In this document: piece after piece, positions 1-10,431 of the stretch
How the letters are laid out: every line of letters begins with the position of its first letter
Position numbering within the stretch: position 1 is the stretch's first letter
Source of the DNA: Candidatus Sumerlaeales bacterium
GTDB taxonomy: Bacteria > Sumerlaeota > Sumerlaeia > Sumerlaeales > Sumerlaeaceae
Length of the DNA stretch: 10,432 nt
Reading direction: 5' to 3'
Assembly: GCA_038243585.1 (NCBI GenBank)
Contig: JBBSQY010000075.1
Location: 1-10,432 of the forward strand
Notes under the pieces: generated by a model
The model's input: the letters and a program-made list of their open reading frames with translations, nothing else
Database searches by the model: none
What the model was told of the DNA's origin: nothing
Program-made: the position numbers and the translations under genes

Positions 1-840
1 GCAGCTGGATACACGAAAATCGATGTTTTTGCCGCCGGCAGTAACCTTAAAACGACCATCCTGCGGCAACCGTCGCTCAGCAATATCCAGTTCACTCATA
101 ATCTTGAGGCGTGATGTGATAGCATTTTGAAATTTCTTAGGGGGATTCTTGCCCTCCTGCAAAACGCCGTCCACACGATAACGCAGCCGAAAAACCTTTT
201 CATAGGGTTCCAGGTGGATATCACTCGCCCGCATCTTAATGGCTTCCTGGATAATCATATTAACCAATTGGATAACAGGCGCATCAGTCGGATCAGGCGC
301 CAGATCGTCCACCATGTCGCCCGCTTCATCAACCGCGGCCTCCATGTTAAACGATTCCATCTCGTCATCAGAGACTTCCTTCAGCATCTCGTTGACGTCG
401 TCGTCTACCTTGTAGTAATTGCGGATCGCTTCCTGAATGTCGCTTTCAAACGAAATGACAGGAACAATTTTGGTGTTGGTCAGCAGTCGAAGTTCATCGA
501 TCAACACAATGTTTGATGGATCGGCCAAGGCAACAGTAAGTGTATCGCCCGTCCTGTCTACCGGAATGATCTGGTATTTGCGGACGATGTCCGCAGGGAT
601 CGAGTCAAGAATTTCTGGATCAATTTCGTAATGAGACAACGTGATAAACGGAACTTCGAGCTGTCGCCCCAGCGCCGCCGCTAGTTCATATTCGCTGGCA
701 TATCCGCTCTCAATAATTATGCGGCCAAGGCTTCCGCCACGCTCTGTCTGTTGGTCAAGAGCAACCTCAAGTTGTGTATCCGAGATAATGTCGTCCCGGA
801 CCAGCATCTCGCCTAATTTCCGTTCCAATACACTGGCCAT
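1..840 (-). CDS. pilB: Type IV pilus assembly ATPase PilB (GspE/PulE family), N-terminal 280 aa; continues beyond the left edge
   Basis: Manual minus-strand translation from ATG at 840-838 is open to base 1: MASVLERKLGEMLV...GSLGRIII (MshEN-like N-terminus)...DAPVIQLVNMIIQEAIKMRASDIHLEPYEK...RYRVDGVL...SRLKIMSELDIAERRLPQDGRF...IDFRVS. SD-like GAAGGT upstream. pilB is preferred over gspE because pilT is nearby. Confidence 0.9.
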   Translation of the reverse strand, partial: MASVLERKLGEMLVRDDIISDTQLEVALDQQTERGGSLGRIIIESGYASEYELAAALGRQLEVPFITLSHYEIDPEILDSIPADIVRKYQIIPVDRTGDTLTVALADPSNIVLIDELRLLTNTKIVPVISFESDIQEAIRNYYKVDDDVNEMLKEVSDDEMESFNMEAAVDEAGDMVDDLAPDPTDAPVIQLVNMIIQEAIKMRASDIHLEPYEKVFRLRYRVDGVLQEGKNPPKKFQNAITSRLKIMSELDIAERRLPQDGRFKVTAGGKNIDFRVSSC

Positions 841-985
841 AGAGCGCTTCTACCTTCAAAAATAACTTTTTTCTGCACGTTTTCCAGAATTCTGAATCTG
901 TATGTCGGATTTATTGAACCGTAATATGTAAAACTAAAGAGAAATTTTCAGTGGATATGGCTATTTAGGTCTGAAACCTTCAATT
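841..985. promoter_or_regulatory. AT-rich divergent promoter region between pilB and rnd
   Basis: 145-bp AT-rich spacer between two divergent start codons; contains the palindrome CAGAATTCTG (885-894). No specific -35/-10 assigned. Confidence 0.45.
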
Positions 986-2185
986 ATGATTGATATAGAA
1001 TCTGTTCTTCACATTACAAAAACTGAGCAGCTTGCTCCACTTCTGCCTAAATTAGAAGCGGCGCGTCGAATTGCCATCGATACCGAGGCCGACAGCCTCC
1101 ACCATTATTTTGAAAAAGTCTGTCTACTCCAGGTTTCCGTTCCCGGCGTAAATGTAATTATTGATCCCTTGGCAGATATTGATCTTACTTCGCTTTTAGA
1201 AGTGCTTGCCCGCAAACCCCTGATCATTCAAGGGGCGGATTACGACCTGCGCATGATGAAACGCGATTACGACTTTAACGCCTGCGAAATTTTTGATACA
1301 ATGCTTGCCGCCCAGATTCTCGGCTACGAGCGCTTCAGTTATGCGGCCCTGGTGGAAAAGCACACGGATGTGATTCTCAGCAAACACGGGCAAAAGGCTG
1401 ACTGGAGTCAGCGTCCGCTGCCGGAAAAGCTGCTCACCTATGCTGCTGCCGATACCCATTATCTCCTGACGGTGGCTGACAGGCTGGAAGAAGAGTTGCA
1501 GATCGCCGGCCGTAGTTCCTGGCTGGACGAATGTTGCGTCCGGTTGCTGGATTATGTATCGAACGGTATGCGCCTGCCCGATCCTGAGAAGCAATGGCGT
1601 GTGAAGGGCTGGCATACCCTTAGACCGGGCAAAGGCTGGGCATTTCTCCGCGAAATGTGGAGATGGCGCGACTCTGAAGCCAAAAAGGTAGATTATCCCC
1701 CGTTCAAAGTGATGCGTAACGAGTCCCTTGTAGAAATCGCAAAATGGGCGCAAGAGGGATTTTCGCCAAAAGACATACCGAAAATACCGAAAAACATCAA
1801 TGGCCGCCGCCGCCGCGAAATGGATACGGCACTGGCAACCGCCAAAGAAATGCCATCCTCGGAATGGCCAAAGCCTCTTGAATCCACGAGGCGCAGCCTG
1901 CCGCCCCTGGATGACGTTCTTCTCAATGAGATTAAGTTTATACGTGACCTAACAGCCACAGACCTCAAACTAGACTCAGGCTTTCTACTGTCGACCTCAA
2001 GCATTGCGTCAATAACAGCCGCCCAACCAAAAGACCTCGACAAACTTAAAGAAGTCGCCTGCCTGTACCAGTGGCAGATCGACCTGATGGGAACCGAAAT
2101 AGTTGACGCTGTAAAAGGAAAACGGCTGCCAAAGCCGTCCAAACCACCAGCCGCAGATTTAGCGGCGGTAGCTCCCGAAGCGTGA
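986..2185 (+). CDS. rnd: Ribonuclease D (DEDDy 3'-5' exonuclease with HRDC domain)
   Basis: Motifs IAIDTEADSLHHYFEKVCLLQ, GADYDL, FDTMLAAQILG, DWSQRPL, YAAADTHYL; HRDC-like WRWRDSEAKKVDYPPFKVMRNESLVEIA. Confidence 0.92.
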   Translation: MIDIESVLHITKTEQLAPLLPKLEAARRIAIDTEADSLHHYFEKVCLLQVSVPGVNVIIDPLADIDLTSLLEVLARKPLIIQGADYDLRMMKRDYDFNACEIFDTMLAAQILGYERFSYAALVEKHTDVILSKHGQKADWSQRPLPEKLLTYAAADTHYLLTVADRLEEELQIAGRSSWLDECCVRLLDYVSNGMRLPDPEKQWRVKGWHTLRPGKGWAFLREMWRWRDSEAKKVDYPPFKVMRNESLVEIAKWAQEGFSPKDIPKIPKNINGRRRREMDTALATAKEMPSSEWPKPLESTRRSLPPLDDVLLNEIKFIRDLTATDLKLDSGFLLSTSSIASITAAQPKDLDKLKEVACLYQWQIDLMGTEIVDAVKGKRLPKPSKPPAADLAAVAPEA

Positions 2186-2192
2186 CTCGTCG

Positions 2193-2244
2193 TTTTGCTT
2201 TCCTTGATTTTGCTTTCCCTTCGTGCCTCTGTGCCTGTGTGTCG
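2193..2244 (+). repeat. Pyrimidine-rich short direct repeats between rnd and pilT
   Basis: TTTTGCTTTCC at 2193-2203 and 2208-2218, then 8-bp periodic TCGTGCCT-CTGTGCCT-GTGTGTCG (2221-2244). Confidence 0.55.
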
Positions 2245-2273
2245 AAATTTCTCAACTTAAATTTTCGTAATCC

Positions 2274-3323
2274 ATGATAACCATCCACCACCTGCTCGTC
2301 GAAGCCGTGGAACGGGGCGCCAGCGATCTGCACCTCACCCAGAACGCGCCGCCCATCTTGCGCATCGATGGCGATCTGGAAGTACTCGACCTCCCTCCCC
2401 TGACCGCAGCCGAGAGTCGCCGTATGATTTACTCCACTCTCAACGACAGCCAAAAGGCATCGTTTGAAGAGCGCTGGGAGCTGGACCTCAGCATCGAGAT
2501 TGAAGACATTGGCCGGTTCCGAGTTAATGTCCACAAGCAGCGCGGCGCGGTAGAAGCCGCCTTTCGCGTGGTTAATGATCAAATAAAGTCTCTCAAGCAA
2601 CTTGGCCTGCCCACTATTTGTGAAGAAATCGCCCGCAAAACCAGCGGCCTTATCCTCGTAACCGGCCCCACCGGCAGCGGAAAAACCTCCACCCTCGCCG
2701 CCATGATCAACCAGATTAACGACGAGCAGCACCGCATGATCATCACCGTCGAAGATCCTATCGAATACATCCACCGAAATAAGAAATCTGTCATAAAGCA
2801 GCGCGAGGTAACCTCCGACACCCGGTCGTTCACCGAGGCCTTGCGCCACGTGCTGCGCCAGGATCCCGATGTCGTCGTCATAGGCGAAATGCGAGACCTC
2901 GAAACCATCTCAACAGCCCTTACAGCCGCGGAAACAGGCCACCTCGTAATGGCAACCATTCATACCCCCGACGCCGTCCAGACCGTCGACCGCATCATCG
3001 ACGTCTTCCCCCCGAACCAGCAGATGCAGGTGCGAATCCAGCTAGCCAACACCCTCCAGGCAATCATCGCTCAACAATTGCTCCCAGTACCCGGCGGACG
3101 CGGGCGCGTCCCTGCTACCGAAATCCTCATCGCTACTGTCGGCGGACGCAACATCATCCGCAACGCCAAAACGGAACAGCTCAACAGCCTGCTGCAAACC
3201 AACTACGACATCGGAATGATGACCATGGACAAGAGCCTGAAAAACCTCTACCAGCAGGGTCTCATCAGTTACGAAGACGCCATCAGCAGATCAAAATTCC
3301 CTGAGAGCTTCGATACCATTTGA
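2274..3323 (+). CDS. pilT: Type IV pilus retraction ATPase, PilT/PilU family
   Basis: ASDLHL, GRFRVN, Walker A GPTGSGKT, Asp box TVEDPIE, LRQDPDVVVIGEMRD (Walker B), His box TGHLVMATIHT; 349 aa fits PilT. Confidence 0.92.
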   Translation: MITIHHLLVEAVERGASDLHLTQNAPPILRIDGDLEVLDLPPLTAAESRRMIYSTLNDSQKASFEERWELDLSIEIEDIGRFRVNVHKQRGAVEAAFRVVNDQIKSLKQLGLPTICEEIARKTSGLILVTGPTGSGKTSTLAAMINQINDEQHRMIITVEDPIEYIHRNKKSVIKQREVTSDTRSFTEALRHVLRQDPDVVVIGEMRDLETISTALTAAETGHLVMATIHTPDAVQTVDRIIDVFPPNQQMQVRIQLANTLQAIIAQQLLPVPGGRGRVPATEILIATVGGRNIIRNAKTEQLNSLLQTNYDIGMMTMDKSLKNLYQQGLISYEDAISRSKFPESFDTI

Positions 3324-3901
3324 CGACGCGTGAGTATCAACTAAAATCCAATCTCACGTTCTATTACCGCCTGGTCGTGTTCCTGGCCGCGCCCGCCTTG
3401 TTCCTCTATACGTCGCCTGCGTCCCTGACCATAATCGCAAGCGCGTTACTTGCGGCTGCATTTGGAGTGGATTTTTTCACCGGACGAACTACATGGTTGG
3501 CTGTTCGCCCGATACCCATACTTACAGGCCTGCTATTTACCAGCTTGTTGGGAATCTACCTTTTTACCGATAATCAGGTAAGTCTGGCAACGCTGCTATG
3601 CCCGGTTCTTCTACTCCTTGCTCTAAGCAGCGATATGATAGCCGACTCGTCAAGGTGGAAAATCATAGTGCCGGTAAGTTTGTTCGCATGCCTGATGGTG
3701 GACCTACTCCTATATGAGATACCAAACAAGAATGTCGCTTGGGCATTTCCAGCCACAGGATTCCTGGCCGCTCTCGTTCGCTTGTCGTTCCCCCGCACAA
3801 AACATCTCATCCACACCAGCCTGGATTACCGCTTCGCCCGCATCGAACTCCTTTCTTTCGGGATGAAAAAACTCGTCGCAATCGGCGTAAAAAAAATCTA
3901 G
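3320..3901 (+). CDS. Hypothetical multi-pass membrane protein (about 5-6 hydrophobic segments)
   Basis: 193-aa ORF whose TTG start overlaps the pilT stop (TTGA); repeated hydrophobic stretches and a basic C-terminal tail; no family motif recognised. Confidence 0.6.
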   Translation: MTTREYQLKSNLTFYYRLVVFLAAPALFLYTSPASLTIIASALLAAAFGVDFFTGRTTWLAVRPIPILTGLLFTSLLGIYLFTDNQVSLATLLCPVLLLLALSSDMIADSSRWKIIVPVSLFACLMVDLLLYEIPNKNVAWAFPATGFLAALVRLSFPRTKHLIHTSLDYRFARIELLSFGMKKLVAIGVKKI

Positions 3902-3920
3902 AATCACCAGCCCAACCCTC

Positions 3921-3947
3921 TGGAGTGTCGGTGGCTTGCCACCGCTC
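3921..3947. repeat. GC-rich hairpin, REP-like palindrome or possible terminator
   Basis: CGGTGG (3929-3934), loop CTTG, CCACCG (3939-3944); extendable by GAG/CTC; ~20 bp after the membrane protein stop; no good U-tract. Confidence 0.55.
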
Positions 3948-4392
3948 TCACCCCGCGCGGAGCGCGCATCTGTAGAACCATTTCTCGCTCCCCCATAATC
4001 ATGTCACGTGTGATCGTCTAGTAAGTTCCCATACGGGAATTCCAACTCCATTCCCGAAGCACCAAAGTCTCCCGAAATACAACTTAATCAAAAAAAGACG
4101 TTCTGTACAATAAGCAAAAACGCCGCTACCGCCGAACTCAAAATCGAACCAGAAACCATCCCATAAAAAAAATGGTAATTTATCGCACTAAACACCCCGC
4201 AAAGCCACGGCCCACAAGCCTGACCTCCACAAAAACCTCACAAATCGCTAAACTCCTCGCTCAGGCCGTCCCCACATAGCAATCCGCCATAAAAACTATA
4301 ACCAGTAAACTACGCGCTCAGAGTCGTCATCGATCATCATGGCACAGCCACACCATAAGTCGTAATGGTAATTATCTCAAGGAAACGAATGA

Positions 4393-4839
<447 letters not shown>

Positions 4840-4840
4840 G

Positions 4841-4864
4841 ATTACGAATTACGAATTATAAATT
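4841..4864 (+). repeat. 7-bp tandem repeat (ATTACGA-like) after the P-II gene
   Basis: ATTACGA-ATTACGA-ATTATAA-ATT read directly; followed by a weak hairpin CCGCC (4871-4875) / GGCGG (4888-4892). Confidence 0.5.
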
Positions 4865-4912
4865 GTTGTCCCGCCTGCTCCATCTGCGGCGGTGAAATTA
4901 CGGAGAATACAA

Positions 4913-7156
4913 TTGATCGTTGAAATAACACCGGAAATTATCGCGGAGCATGGCGTAACCCCTGAAGAGTACCAAACCATACTGGACATCCTAGGGCGCG
5001 AGCCGAACATCACGGAACTGGGTATTTTTTCCGTCATGTGGAGCGAACACTGCTCATACAAGAACTCAAAACCGCTGCTCATCACCTTCCCAACAGAAGG
5101 CCCCCAGGTATTGCAGGGACCGGGCGAAAACGCCGGTGTTGTGGATTTTGATGAAAAATACGCCATAGTTTTTAAAATGGAATCTCATAATCACCCTAGC
5201 GCCCTCGAACCCTACCAGGGAGCGGCCACCGGCGTGGGCGGCATCCTGCGCGACATCTTCACCATGGGCGCGCGGCCCATCGCATTGCTCGATCCCCTTC
5301 GTTTCGGCGACCCCTCTGACGCTCGCACTCGTCACATCATTAAGGGCGTGGTCGAGGGGATAGCTGATTACGGTAACGCTGTCGGCGTGCCCACCATCGG
5401 CGGCGAATGCTGCTTCTCCCCTGCCTATAACGGCAACCCGCTGGTTAATGTCATGTGTCTGGGCATTATTGAGAAAGACAAAATCACCCGCGCCGTCGCG
5501 TCCGGCGTCGATAATCTTGTCGTTTACTACGGCAACAGCACTGGCCGCGACGGCATCCACGGGGCCACTTTTGCCAGCACAGAACTGACGGAAGAAAGCG
5601 AAGACCGCCGCAGCGCTGTGCAGGTAGGCGATCCATTTACCGAAAAGAAGATTCTCGAAGCAACCCTGGAGCTTATCTCTGCAAACGCCTGTGTCGCCAT
5701 ACAGGATATGGGCGCCGCTGGGCTCACCTGTTCCTGCGCGGAGATGGCCGGGCGCGGCGGCATGGGTATTGAAATTGAACTGAACAAGGTGCCCCAGCGC
5801 GCCGACAACCTGAGCGCCTATGAAATGATGCTGAGCGAAAGCCAGGAACGCATGCTGGCCATCGTCGAGCCCGGCAAGCTGGAACTGGCCAACGACATCC
5901 TGAAAAAATGGGACCTCGAAGCGCACGTGCTGGGCAAACTGGACGACAGCGGCATGATGAAGGTCTTTCATGACGGCAAGCTTCAGGCAGAACTTCCTGC
6001 CGACAAAGTTTCAGACAACTCCCCCGTCTATCATCGCGAGTCCAAACGGCCCGCTTATATGGACACACTGCCGGACGCTCGCCAATTCGACACCGCCACC
6101 CTCGGCGACGTTCACGCGCTTCTTCTCGAATTTCTCGCGTCACCAAACATCTGCTCGAAACGTTGGATTTTCCAGCAGTACGACCACATGGTTCAGACGC
6201 AGACCGTTACGCCGCCCGGCGATAATGCGTCTGTATTAAAAGTACATGGAACCAAGCATTACGTATCCGCCGCCACCGACGGCAACGGCCTTTATTGTTA
6301 TGTTGACCCTTACGAAGGCGGCAAGCTCGCCGTGGCGGAAAGCGCCCGCAACGTCGCATGCACCGGCGCCCGCCCCCTGGCCATCACCAACTGCCTCAAC
6401 TTTGGCAGCCCTCTAAAGCCGGAAGTTTTCTTCCAGCTGGCCGAGGCCGTACGCGGCATCGGAGAAGCCTGCTCAGCACTGGACACTCCCGTCACCGGAG
6501 GCAATGTCAGCCTATACAATGAAAACCCTGAAGGCGCCATCTGGCCGACACCTGTCATCGGTATGGTCGGAAAAATCGCCCATCCGGCCAAACCAGTCAC
6601 CGCTGGATTCAAAGCTGCTGGCGACAGCATCTTTCTACTCGGTCTCGCAGCAGAACACCTCGGCGCATCAGAGATCCTTCGCTGGAAAACCGGCAAGGAA
6701 CACGCCCCCTGCCCCACCTGCGATCTGACCGCCGAAAGAAACGTAATTGATCTTTTGGTCGAAGCCAACGCCGCTGAACTGCTTCAGTCCGCCCACGACT
6801 GCGGCACCGGTGGCCTGGCTGTTACTCTGGCCGAATCTTTGCTAAAAGGTGCTTCCGGTCTTGGAGCCACAGTAGACATTACCGCCCTCAACCCCAATAC
6901 AATTACGGAACTTTTCGCAGAGACGGCCCCGCGTGTTCTGGTATCTGTGTCCACCGATAATGAAGCAACCTTTCAGGCTTTATGCGAAACTCACCACGTG
7001 CCTAGCGACAAGCTCGGCAAGGTCAGCAATGACGGTCAGTTTGTCCTAACGACAACTGAGGGTCCTGTTACCTGGGCCTTCGCGGCTTTTGAAGCAGCTT
7101 ATGAATCGACCGAGTCCATCTTTCCTCGTACGGAAGTCGAGGTACCTCTCCATTGA
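4913..7156 (+). CDS. purL: Phosphoribosylformylglycinamidine synthase subunit PurL (small type, ~747 aa)
   Basis: Motifs [84 protein letters not shown] start at 4913 preferred over GTG 4892 because GGAG (4902-4905) lies 7 nt upstream. Confidence 0.97.
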
Positions 7157-8229
7157 GCAACTGGCCGCCACCACCGACGCCATATAACCAGGCCCCCCAG
7201 CCGCCACCCCCGTCGTCCCGCGCAGGATGCGGACGTGCCCTGCTTATCACCGCGCTTCTTACTGGACTCAGCCTGGCGCTCGTCGCGTTTTTATCAAAGG
7301 CAGACCGTGGCTTTATGCCTGTTCTGCAAGAATCCGTCGGCGTAATTCGCATCGAAGGCCCGATCACTGACAGCCGCGACACCGTCGCAGTCATCAGGAA
7401 GTTTCGCGAAAACAAAATGATATCTGCCATCGTTTTGCGCCTTGAAACCCCCGGCGGCGGGGTTGGTGCCAGTGAAGAGATTTACCGTGAAGTTCTAAAA
7501 GCCCGAGTCGAAGATAAAAAGCCGGTTATCGTAAGCATGGGAAGCGTCGCAGCCTCCGGTGGCTATTATATCGCCGCAGCGAGCCAGCACATTTTCGCCA
7601 CGTCCAGCACCATAACGGGCAGCATAGGTGTCATTTCTCCAACGTTTAATGTTCAGGAAACCCTGTCGAAACTGGGTATCAAGCAGAGCTCTCTAACCAC
7701 CGGTGAGCACAAGGATACTGGGAGCCCATTTGACGAACAAACCACCGGAGAACGGGCGCTGTTGCAAGGCGTTATCAATGACATGTACCGCCAGTTTTTC
7801 CAGGTGGTGCTTCAGGCGCGCCATGAGGCCATTGGCAAAGCCGAAACCGCTGGTAAGATTGACCCGGTCATCAATGCCGCACAAACGAAAATCGCAGGCC
7901 AGGCTGTCGAATGGAGCACTTTCACCACCGGCACCATAGCCACAGCCCTGGGCGTTCCCGTACAGGCGGAGACAGCCCTTCGGAAACTGGCCGACGGCCG
8001 CGTCTACACCGGCGAACAGGCTCTTCAAGTTGGCTTGGTCGACACCATTGGAACTCTTCAGGATGCCATAGATTTCGCCGGCCGCAAAGTCGACCTGGGC
8101 GATGATCCAGCAACGATAGACCGGACCCCCGGCTCCGATGCATCATCATGGTTCGGAGCCAAGGTAAGAAACTTTATCCAGGAAGCCACCGCCCCGACAC
8201 AATCCATCCAACTCCGAAGCCGATTTTGA
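7153..8229 (+). CDS. sppA: Signal peptide peptidase SppA, single-domain (36K-type), peptidase S49
   Basis: N-terminal Pro-rich tail and one TM helix; [22 protein letters not shown] (catalytic Ser), TGSIGV, GEHKD (catalytic Lys), [21 protein letters not shown] start overlaps the purL stop (TTGA). Confidence 0.93.
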
Positions 8230-8353
8230 TGCCGGGAAGCAAAGACTTCACGCCATTTCTATGAGAGAACAAAAGACCGAGACAGCAGATCAACTGCATG
8301 GACTGCAAGAACCAGACGCCGCCTATCCCCAGTCGCCGCGTTTCCCTGGGAGC

Positions 8354-8371
8354 GCGCGTGCCCCCACGCGC
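8354..8371. repeat. GC-rich hairpin (REP-like)
   Basis: GCGCGTG (8354-8360), loop CCCC, CACGCGC (8365-8371), preceded by CTGGGA. Confidence 0.55.
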
Positions 8372-8502
8372 ACATTTCCATAGAAACGAAACTCTAAGGT
8401 GGCAACCGCGGCCGGCTTTTCATCGAAATTATGAGTGGCGGCTGCAAGCTGCTTGATGCAAGAAAAGCTTCATCATCATCTCAATTTTAAGTCAAACCCC
8501 AT

Positions 8503-8585
8503 GCCGGCTTTAGCCGGCCAGTCTTTGCCCCCAAATTCATGCGGGGGGTATAGTAGTTAAAAAGACAGCCGGGCTTTATCCGGAC
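8503..8585. repeat. Cluster of three short palindromes (REP/BIME-like)
   Basis: GCCGGCT-TT-AGCCGGC (8503-8518); CCCCC-AAATTCATGC-GGGGG (8528-8547); degenerate copy of the first, CCGG-GCTTTAT-CCGG (8569-8583). Confidence 0.55.
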
Positions 8586-8622
8586 TTATCGCTCGCTTCA
8601 GAAAAAGAAAACAGGATAATAA

Positions 8623-9489
8623 ATGCCCCACCACCTGCTGTTAAAAGGTTCCACACTCTGGGCACTGATCAACCACTTTGACCCACCCGTGACCGGCCTG
8701 CCAAGCCTTACCAAAGCCGGCGCATCCACCATAGAAGTCAGCGACCTCCTCCTAACGCCAGCCATGCTCGAACAGATCGCCCAAAACCGCCTCGGCCTTA
8801 TCATCCAGACTCATCCCCTAACCCCCGATGACATTAACGCCACCCTCGCCCTCGCGAAACAAAGCCGCGCCGTCGCCATAAATACCCACATCCGCACCCC
8901 ACACATAGACCACGACGATGCCGTGCAATTAGTAAAGGGCCTGATCAGCCGCGCCACCGACGCCAGCATCCCTCTCTATTGCGAAACCCATCGCGGCTGC
9001 CTAACCCAAGACCTCTACCGCACCGCCAAACTAGCCGAAGTCATACCCGAAATGCGCTTCACCCTAGACGTATCCCATTATGTTCTCTCCGAAGAACAAC
9101 CCGGTCCGACAGAAAAGCTCGCAGCACTCTTAGACATCATCCTCGACCGTACAGAAATGATCCACGGACGCATCTCTAACGGCCAGCAAATCCAGCAGCA
9201 CACCGTTGACCCAACTAGCGACCTTGCCCAGTCCTACAAAGCCTTCTGGACAGAAGCCATGCGCCGCTGGCGCATGCGGAAACCAGCCGGCAGCACCCTC
9301 ATCTTTACCCCAGAACTCGGCCCGCCCCCCTACGCCATACTAGACAAGGAGGGAAATGAACTCTCCAACCGCCTGGAACAAACAGAAACAATATGGGAAA
9401 TAGCCCAGGCCGCCTGGAAACAAAGCGCCAGCGCTGGAAGCAATCGCTTCTGGCCGTGCACCACAAACACCGCCCCACCTCAGAAATAA
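8623..9489 (+). CDS. Sugar phosphate isomerase/epimerase-like TIM-barrel protein (xylose isomerase-like superfamily)
   Basis: Metal-binding-type motifs CETHRG, TLDVSHY, IHGRISNGQQIQ, FTPELGPPPYAI; SD-like AGGA upstream of the ATG. Substrate cannot be inferred. Confidence 0.75.
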   Translation: MPHHLLLKGSTLWALINHFDPPVTGLPSLTKAGASTIEVSDLLLTPAMLEQIAQNRLGLIIQTHPLTPDDINATLALAKQSRAVAINTHIRTPHIDHDDAVQLVKGLISRATDASIPLYCETHRGCLTQDLYRTAKLAEVIPEMRFTLDVSHYVLSEEQPGPTEKLAALLDIILDRTEMIHGRISNGQQIQQHTVDPTSDLAQSYKAFWTEAMRRWRMRKPAGSTLIFTPELGPPPYAILDKEGNELSNRLEQTETIWEIAQAAWKQSASAGSNRFWPCTTNTAPPQK

Positions 9490-9515
9490 CTTTTCTCCCC
9501 CTGGCAGTGCTTATC

Positions 9516-9545
9516 AGGTTTGCTTCGTGGAATTCCCGCAAACCT
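9516..9545. terminator. Stem-loop between the convergent TIM-barrel gene and tRNA 3' end; probable terminator
   Basis: AGGTTTGC (9516-9523) and GCAAACCT (9538-9545) are a perfect 8-bp inverted repeat, 10 nt downstream of the tRNA CCA on the minus strand; U-tracts are poor. Confidence 0.55.
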
Positions 9546-9555
9546 ATATAGGGAG

Positions 9556-9584
9556 TGGTGCACCCGGTTGGATTCGAACCAACG
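9556..9584 (-). mobile_element. Isolated tRNA 3' fragment, probable att site of an integrated element (likely tRNA-Arg target)
   Basis: Minus strand reads C-GTTGG-TTCGAAT-CCAAC-CGGGTGC-A-CCA: complete T-arm, 3' acceptor strand, discriminator and CCA. Upstream sequence gives no anticodon arm, D arm or 5' acceptor strand. An integrase ends 200 bp away. Confidence 0.88.
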
Positions 9585-9697: not shown

Positions 9698-9746
9698 GAC
9701 CTACATAACCTACATGACCTATTTGACCTACACAACCTACATAACC
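9698..9746 (+). repeat. 9-bp tandem repeat array (consensus RACCTACAT), 5 units plus a partial
   Basis: GACCTACAT, AACCTACAT, GACCTATTT, GACCTACAC, AACCTACAT, AACC, contiguous from 9698. Confidence 0.85.
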
Positions 9747-9783: not shown

Positions 9784-10431
9784 CTACGCGCTCTTAATAT
9801 CCACTACATTGCCGGTAACAGCAGCGGCCAGGTGTTCAGCCAGCGGTGTCAGGACCTCTTGCCGCAGATATGCGGCTTCACCGTAATCAGCATAGACTCT
9901 GCCGGTCATGCTTTGTGGCCGATGCCCGATGTAAGCGCCTAGTGCCTCTTCGCGCACCCGTGCGGCGCGGCAGAGGTTAGCAAATGACTTCCGCATGTCT
10001 TTAGGCGCTACAGCTAAAAAAGCCGGTCTCTGTGCCTTATCTGTGCAATTCTTGCCGGCTTTGTCCAGGACGTGACGAACCGCCTTGCCCAACGATAGGT
10101 CGGTTGCCAGTGATCCGTTGACTTTGGTAATCGGTTTGAAGGTCTTTGCCCACTCAGCGACGAACGGCAATAGCGGTATTGTCCGCTCACGAAATCGGTT
10201 TTTACTACGCTTGATTGATACCGTGCCGGCCTTATGGTCGAAGTCTTCAGGACGGAGACGCAGGATTTCCAGAATGTTCATACCGGCATAGCCGCCAAGC
10301 ATAACAGCAGGCATTAGACCTGGGTTCTTGCTCTCCTGTGCATATTGCAGCAGGATCGATAGTTGCACGGCATCAAGGTAGGCTTTAGCCGGTTTGGACT
10401 CTTCCACCAGGTGCCGGCTTTGGATATTAAG
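9784..10431 (-). CDS. Tyrosine recombinase/integrase, C-terminal catalytic domain (5' end beyond the right edge), atypical active site
   Basis: Frame stays open past the tracked GTG (10407) to the window edge (LNIQSRHL...). Box I-like YAGMNILEILRLRPED, SKN...RTIPL, Box II-like PKDMRKSFA...IGH...TGRVY, and an NVVDI tail typical of phage-like integrases. Confidence 0.85.
   Translation of the reverse strand, partial: LNIQSRHLVEESKPAKAYLDAVQLSILLQYAQESKNPGLMPAVMLGGYAGMNILEILRLRPEDFDHKAGTVSIKRSKNRFRERTIPLLPFVAEWAKTFKPITKVNGSLATDLSLGKAVRHVLDKAGKNCTDKAQRPAFLAVAPKDMRKSFANLCRAARVREEALGAYIGHRPQSMTGRVYADYGEAAYLRQEVLTPLAEHLAAAVTGNVVDIKSA

Follow-up and report, generated by a model that had tools for sequence, protein, structure and literature searches.

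A tyrosine integrase with asparagine at Box I and a candidate substitute arginine in its beta2-beta3 hairpin

Can a tyrosine integrase be active when Box I, the site of the first catalytic arginine (Arg I), holds an asparagine, and if so, which residue would take over the part of that arginine? The question is raised by an ORF of 215 codons and a stop lying at one end of the stretch of DNA analysed here (10,432 bp, hereafter the window), which amounts to an entire contig (G000:C75) of a metagenome-assembled genome of 99 contigs (89.7% complete, 3.6% contamination). The ORF has an open 5' end and no internal stops, with the N-terminus of the integrase being absent because the assembly stops at the contig end. 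The original prediction had read asparagine at Box I and lysine in the place of the histidine of the HxxR motif, and had offered two interpretations of this active site, namely an undescribed active subfamily in which a basic residue of the string KNRFRER stands in for the arginine, or an impaired integrase kept as a DNA-binding protein.

The remainder of the window was found to be largely ordinary chromosome. Positions 1-8229 encode a PilB-like T2SSE ATPase (cut at the contig start), an RNase D-like exonuclease with an HRDC domain, a PilT-like ATPase, a P-II protein, a PurL-like AIR-synthase-domain protein and an S49 peptidase (SppA-like), while the ORFs at 3320-3901 and 8623-9489 gave no Pfam match. 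Within the intergenic region 8230-8622, at approximately 8500-8550, a GC-rich repeat with the capacity to form hairpins extends over about 48 nt. Nine further matches to it occur in the same genome, and several at 83-85% identity in a genome of the same genus (G002), and this dispersed element is REP- or MITE-like.

The ORF product was matched by the Pfam model PF00589 (Phage_integrase) with an E value of 5.7e-8 and 33.2 bits against a cut-off of 27.1, and the motifs AGMNILE, SKNRFRERTIPL, PKDMRKSF, IGH and RVY, together with SKN, were identified in it (Table 1). The earlier reading of Asn52 (AAC, 10278-10276) inside AGMNILE and of Lys144 (AAA, 10002-10000) inside PKDMR proved correct in both coordinates and motifs, as did the retention of the SKN lysine, the arginine, the IGH histidine and the RVY tyrosine in a frame without a stop. 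Alignment with the archaeal XerA (4a8e) using HMMER placed N52 opposite the Box I arginine, K144 and R147 opposite HxxR, and H170 and Y180 opposite the GH...Y residues. Of the tyrosine recombinase set, the tyrosine, Arg II, His II and the hairpin lysine are present in this alignment, with Arg I of Box I and His I of HxxR absent. An AlphaFold2 (AF2) model built from 105 aligned relatives had a mean pLDDT of 94.1 and a pTM of 0.88, and its best structural matches were XerA, Brujita Int, Tn1549 Int, lambda Int, P2 Int, XerD and Cre. Foldseek returned 18 PDB chains at E<=1e-3, and all matches listed down to E 6e-3 were tyrosine recombinases.

Table 1. Features of the window that bear on the integrase and its putative attachment region.
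Feature	Position	Strand	Basis
C-terminal part of a tyrosine integrase, with the last part of the core-binding domain and the complete catalytic domain	9784..10431	-	ORF, Pfam, AF2, fold matches
Asn52 codon (AAC) at the Arg I position of Box I	10276..10278	-	Codon reading, XerA alignment, family alignment
Lys77 codon, catalytic lysine of the beta2-beta3 hairpin	10201..10203	-	K in 147/152 aligned rows
Arg81 codon (CGT), proposed relocated Arg I, Lys+4 in the hairpin loop	10189..10191	-	Covariation, trees, AF2
K144-D-M-R147, KxxR for HxxR; R147 invariant	9991..10002	-	Codon reading, alignments
H170 (His II) through Y180 (tyrosine nucleophile)	9892..9924	-	XerA and family alignments
tRNA-Arg-like 3' end (29 nt: T-arm, acceptor strand, ACCA; no 5' half)	9556..9584	-	28/29 against the tRNA-Arg(TCT) of contig C5
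9-bp unit ACCTACATA (+ strand), 5.3 tandem copies, just downstream of the integrase stop	9699..9746	.	

The asparagine at Box I was found to be shared by the closest relatives of the window protein. An intact paralog of 389 aa is encoded on another contig (C2) of the same genome; it is 39% identical across the catalytic half and carries the motifs GCNIKE, SKNKYRARSIP, PKDVRK, IGH and KHY, being likewise of the type with asparagine at Box I and arginine at position 81 (Asn/Arg type). When 1.84 billion representatives were searched with HMMER, 180 matches reached E<=1e-3, of which the best has 54% identity. Asn52 is conserved without exception among the window protein, its C2 paralog and the six nearest representatives (36-51% identity), contrary to the refuting case named with the original prediction, in which close homologues would all have arginine. 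The residues invariant in these same eight sequences are N52, E55, K77, R81, R83, R147, H170 and Y180, and such invariance at this level of identity points to purifying selection. This close Asn clade is rare: a search of 5.8 billion proteins with the C2 paralog as query yielded only two further proteins at E<=1e-10, and searches of 74 other genomes of the phylum recovered no member of the Asn/Arg clade. With the window fragment as query, no match at E<=1e-3 was obtained among proteins of 118-377 aa. One of the representatives, P0009, is an apparent fusion or miscalled gene in which an N-terminal part resembling a major intrinsic protein is joined to an Asn/Arg-type catalytic domain; the single PF00230 match among 105 members of the family is probably this protein.

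For comparison across the family, an alignment of 152 rows to a catalytic-domain profile was made, comprising the best 150 of the 180 representatives (E<=1e-3) in addition to the window protein and the C2 paralog. Y180 and R147 are invariant in these rows, with K77 and H170 conserved in 147 and 132 of them, respectively. Box I lacks its arginine in 42 of the 149 rows that have a residue there, the replacements being N (22 rows), D (5), G (3), Q (3), A (2) and Y (2), with K, S, L, H and T found once each. The loss was found to be coupled to another position. Arginine occupies position 81 in 39 of these 42 rows, and lysine in none of them, whereas among the 106 rows with both the Box I arginine and a residue at position 81 the latter is serine in 91, arginine in 5, glycine in 4, lysine in 3, alanine in 2 and histidine in 1. 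Mutual information between the state of Box I and position 81 amounted to 0.695 of a possible 0.858 bits, with the next column reaching 0.318. Of the other arginines in the hairpin, R83 is near-invariant in both Box I types and R79 and R75 are variable. The same rule is obeyed by all 14 readable catalytic domains at 12 loci of the phylum (12 R/S, 1 Q/R and 1 N/R, given as Box I/81), the locus of the C2 paralog being one of the 12. The family therefore exists in two states that can replace one another, one being Arg/Ser and the other having arginine at position 81 together with Asn, Asp, Gly, Gln or another residue at Box I.

Three of the 42 rows without the Box I arginine also lack arginine at position 81, having the combinations H/Y, T/L and N/H; these combinations reflect either misalignment or members with neither arginine. 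The rows concerned are P0073, P0091 and P0132, which may be inactive or misaligned. Arginine at both positions was observed in rows P0083, P0087, P0097, P0109 and P0129, and these five members are possible evolutionary intermediates as judged by their residues.

The lysine of KxxR shows no such coupling. Three positions ahead of Arg II, K is found in 60, R in 44 and H in 19 of the 152 rows. As this residue varies in both Box I states it is unlinked to the swap; the lysine is an ordinary variant within the family, and the proposal that KxxR forms part of a rewired active site was not upheld. Lysine also stands at the His I place (KxxR) in type IB topoisomerases, in which respect the window protein is alike, whereas its fold matches are recombinases.

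As kinship alone could yield such a table of paired residues, trees were built without columns 52 and 81, using the 105 of 152 rows in which at least 80% of columns were filled (47 sparser rows were dropped). On a quick tree Box I was found to change 12 times, at least seven of these changes being forced by well-supported branches, and position 81 to change 11 times; in seven independent pairs, position 81 changed the same way in 6.8 and the opposite way in 0 (p ~0.016). On a more careful tree the changes numbered 13 and 12, and six independent pairs gave 5.9 the same way and 0 opposite (p ~0.031), both sign tests resting on only six to seven independent pairs. Sister pairs in opposite states include P0086 (Q/R) with P0140 (R/S), and P0033 (R/S) with P0042/P0081 (N/R). 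On these trees the swap is recurrent and not inherited once.

The position of Arg81 within the fold is compatible with a catalytic role. In the AF2 model the strands 70-73 and 83-86 enclose a loop that holds both K77 and R81. Structures of Cre, lambda Int and the Xer recombinases have this beta2-beta3 hairpin bringing the catalytic lysine to the scissile phosphate, and because the hairpin carries the lysine there, it is plausible for R81 to reach the Arg I site. We infer that R81 reaches the scissile phosphate. In the HMMER alignment with the XerA hairpin (GKGGK), K77 lies opposite the first lysine and R81 opposite the second, with the equivalent of R81 being glycine in Tn1549 Int (KTQSG). Lambda Int, Tn1549 Int, XerA and XerD otherwise share the fold, domain order, lysine, Arg II, His II and tyrosine of the window protein. 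The family is nonetheless distant from the Xer proteins as modelled by NCBIfam: the C2 paralog scored at best 21.7 bits against the XerC, XerD and XerA models (cut-offs 220-371), the window fragment gave no NCBIfam Xer match, and no NCBIfam model came near its cut-off for the family.

A relocated first arginine is itself not new. In the integrases of Bacteroidota conjugative transposons (IntDOT/IntCTnDOT), the Box I arginine is missing in some members and an arginine of the hairpin region substitutes for it, as proposed for the window, with the substitute in IntDOT reportedly being R285. In Smyshlyaev et al. 2021 (PMC8138268), the first arginine is described as weakly conserved in the IntCTnDOT subgroup, with CTnDOT-type integrases holding the catalytic arginine in either of two alternative places; citing Kim et al. 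2010, it also states that Arg I of the CTnDOT integrase is functionally replaced by a downstream arginine. In the Figure 1A alignment of that paper, Bacteroidales rows have S or A at Box I together with the hairpin RQKT, and a neighbouring row with the Box I arginine has the hairpin QKKT. The substitute arginine in such CTnDOT-type rows is at Lys-2 (RQKT, read by eye from that alignment), whereas that of the window is at Lys+4 (KNRFR); the Lys-2 residue of the window is R75, although the residues found there differ within its clade (R, L, V, E and others). The two groups also differ in their N-terminal domains, the Arm-DNA-bind_5 domain of IntCTnDOT (PF17293) being found in none of 105 family members and Phage_int_SAM_5 (PF13102) in eight of 105, both at E<=1e-3; the C2 paralog, P0002 and P0004 match PF00589 only, and the clade of the window has neither of the CTnDOT N-terminal domains.

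Two other recombinases bear comparison. The small IntDes subgroup of Desulfovibrio, reported from a single genus, is described in PMC8138268 as having a shifted first arginine and a replaced His I, the His I place being taken by tyrosine in IntDes and by lysine in the window. GinC is without the first arginine according to PMC5385486. When six Asn-type hairpin strings were sought in the Figure 1A alignment of PMC8138268, a narrow test, none was found in the hairpin context, and one of the strings had two matches elsewhere in the proteins. In the open literature on IntDOT and its catalytic arginine Smyshlyaev et al. 2021 alone was relevant, two other IntDOT papers making no mention of the arginine, and an arginine at Lys+4 was not described in the titles and abstracts listed on the first arginine or the catalytic pentad of tyrosine recombinases (subscription journals being outside the scope of this search). 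The principle of relocation is therefore already known, and what the present case adds is confined to another position and another family. The original prediction of an active subfamily with a basic residue of KNRFRER in the place of the arginine holds in so far as the middle arginine of this string, R81, is the one that covaries, and does so nearly perfectly, with the missing Box I arginine, while the subfamily cannot be called undescribed in principle (PMC8138268).

The surroundings of the integrase were examined for signs of an integrated element. In the window, the 29-nt tRNA-Arg-like 3' end is followed by the 9-bp repeats and then by the integrase stop at 9784, and this is the same order as at an island on contig C2 that carries the paralog. 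ARAGORN found no tRNA within the window. The 29-nt tRNA-Arg-like end would represent a copy of the att core at the point where island and chromosome meet, and the 9-bp repeats are candidate arm-type integrase binding sites. Across the whole bin the window has the sole run of more than two such 9-bp motifs, with one other close pair in contig C32. Canonical arm-binding integrases and Xer recombinases are alike in tRNA 3'-end integration and arm-type repeats, and differ in having the Box I arginine.

The island on C2 is complete, measuring 10.5 kb (1055-11605 of locus L017, G000:C2:99000-112500), with the paralogous integrase at one end. It is flanked by a 24-nt exact direct repeat (27/28) corresponding to the 3' end of a tRNA-Met, with the complete tRNA-Met at the far end. 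Tandem 9-bp repeats (TTTACCCTN) adjoin the integrase stop and recur inverted at the other end (20 nt, 95% complementarity); the 9-bp unit of the window is a different one. A copy of the tRNA 3' end is thus seen at both ends of the C2 element, 10.5 kb apart, and at the one junction that is visible in the window. The cargo consists of a DUF3987 protein of 837 aa, an HK97-type capsid protein and several ORFs to which no Pfam model matched, and the island looks like a phage satellite or minimal prophage by its size and gene set. With regard to the earlier suggestion that a second integrase might account for integration, none of either the tyrosine or the serine type was found in this complete sister element: only one of the six PF00589 matches of the genome falls within it, and no serine (resolvase-type) recombinase was found in the whole bin. 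An intact island with att repeats and no other recombinase lends indirect support to a working Asn/Arg enzyme. Logan contigs of three runs contained neither an excised form of the C2 island nor a clean empty-site joint; one joint, from 927 to 11583 with a 22-letter side, lies off the direct repeats and is evidence neither way.

The element of the window could be followed less far. The far end was not found in the bin by tblastn or by a search for the 9-bp motif. The N-terminal half of the integrase was not found elsewhere in the bin by tblastn with the N-terminal parts of six homologues, which matched only the C2 paralog and an integrase on contig C6, and the contig tail has no k-mers in common with any other contig of the bin. 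No confirmed relatives were found among the genome, viral and metagenome contigs searched for related loci. The window copy could therefore be a remnant, given that the bin contains neither the N-terminal half of this integrase nor the remainder of the element.

Two other loci were considered in relation to this element. The tRNA-Arg(TCT) of contig C5, as a candidate for the other end of the element (attL), matches 28 of 29 nt, but it was rejected because it has no 9-bp motifs close by and forms part of a paralogous gene-tRNA pair. Within that locus (L004, G000:C5:80000-96000), positions 7320-7949 hold a paralog of the window gene 8623-9489, after which comes the intact tRNA-Arg(TCT), encoded on the other strand, an arrangement that matches window 8623-9584; the stretch 7320-7781 has 56% protein identity to the G002 ortholog of the window gene, and the adjoining segment is inverted relative to G002. 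In the orthologous region of G002, taken as a possible empty site, the tRNA-Arg(TCT) lies about 1.9 kb off in the other orientation and no clean site could be defined. The same tRNA-Met as that of the C2 island occurs in G002 (L028, G002:C101:16000-23000), at 1459-1488 and 5150-5440, where 30 nt of its 3' end are repeated at a distance of 3.9 kb and a short C-terminal integrase remnant adjoins the tRNA-Met; no intact integrase of the family was observed there. This tRNA-Met hot spot thus appears to hold a decayed element in G002.

Taken with the covariation, these observations suggest that the ORF encodes the catalytic half of a tyrosine integrase that is active and binds arm sites, and that belongs to a small element integrated in a tRNA-Arg gene, at the 3' end. 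The active site of the enzyme would keep K77, R147 as Arg II, H170 as His II and Y180 as the nucleophile. Box I, holding Asn52, would not supply the first catalytic arginine; Arg81, four residues after the lysine in the beta2-beta3 hairpin loop, which adjoins the scissile phosphate in known recombinases, would supply it instead, relatives with the Box I arginine having serine at position 81. The enzyme would be expected to cleave and rejoin DNA. It is thus considered probable that this is an active integrase with Arg I moved to the beta2-beta3 loop, which would make it the second version of a relocation first known from the CTnDOT type, one that arose independently and recurrently.

Other explanations were weighed against this one. 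That the asparagine reflects a sequencing or assembly error, or pseudogene decay specific to the strain, might be thought of for a gene cut at a contig end in an incomplete and slightly contaminated metagenome-assembled genome, but the same asparagine and R81 occur in the intact paralog and in all six closest representatives, which speaks against strain decay, and the 215 codons are free of stops; this explanation is hardly credible. The protein may instead be a catalytically dead or crippled homologue kept for a DNA-binding, architectural or regulatory function, with the island moving otherwise or no longer. The canonical Arg I is essential in studied enzymes, as reported for R173 of Cre (PMC2965224), and the lack of an excised form among the Logan contigs and the incompleteness of the window copy also fit such a protein. 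However, K77, R147, H170 and Y180, which are needed for catalysis only, are invariant in the Asn clade, and this pattern of conservation argues against the impaired DNA-binding protein that the original prediction had held out as its second option. The loss of the Box I arginine is moreover paired with the gain of Arg81, repeatedly on the tree, and a dead enzyme would need no compensating arginine, so that the coupled swap counts against a loss of activity, as do the intact att repeats of the C2 island and its lack of another recombinase. A dead enzyme is accordingly regarded as decidedly unlikely.

There is also a small chance that the enzyme is active with a reduced site that has no equivalent of Arg I, with R81 covarying for reasons of structure (cavity filling) or DNA binding. 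Covariation indicates coupling and not chemistry, and a swap of large and small polar residues between two sites would also fit packing; the three rows with arginine at neither site can be read in the same way. Set against this, the residue gained by rows without the Box I arginine is arginine in 39 cases and never lysine, and in the CTnDOT integrase a relocated arginine is reported as a functional substitute (PMC8138268). A more far-reaching version of relocation, that the first catalytic arginine is a mobile residue having jumped at least 6-13 times from the Box I helix to the beta2-beta3 loop or back and thereby giving control through loop docking, is regarded as speculative and unlikely. 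The jumps would probably pass through intermediates with both arginines, as carried by the five of 106 rows noted above. If this were true, assembly of the active site would depend on docking of the arginine-bearing loop onto DNA, and docking would constitute a different on/off control of cleavage within the synapse.

Relocation of Arg I to the beta2-beta3 loop, the preferred reading, has consequences for how such proteins are recognised. Active-site checks or annotation pipelines that demand the set R-K-H-R-H-Y would label these integrases defective, while the residue patterns argue that they would be functional, with the catalytic set being met from a second position. The many close natural pairs in the two states provide a ready-made experiment on the migration of a catalytic residue within a fold. 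The finding would extend one documented case, that of the CTnDOT type, to a second hairpin position and a second lineage, which suggests that relocation of the arginine is a general escape route and not a curiosity.
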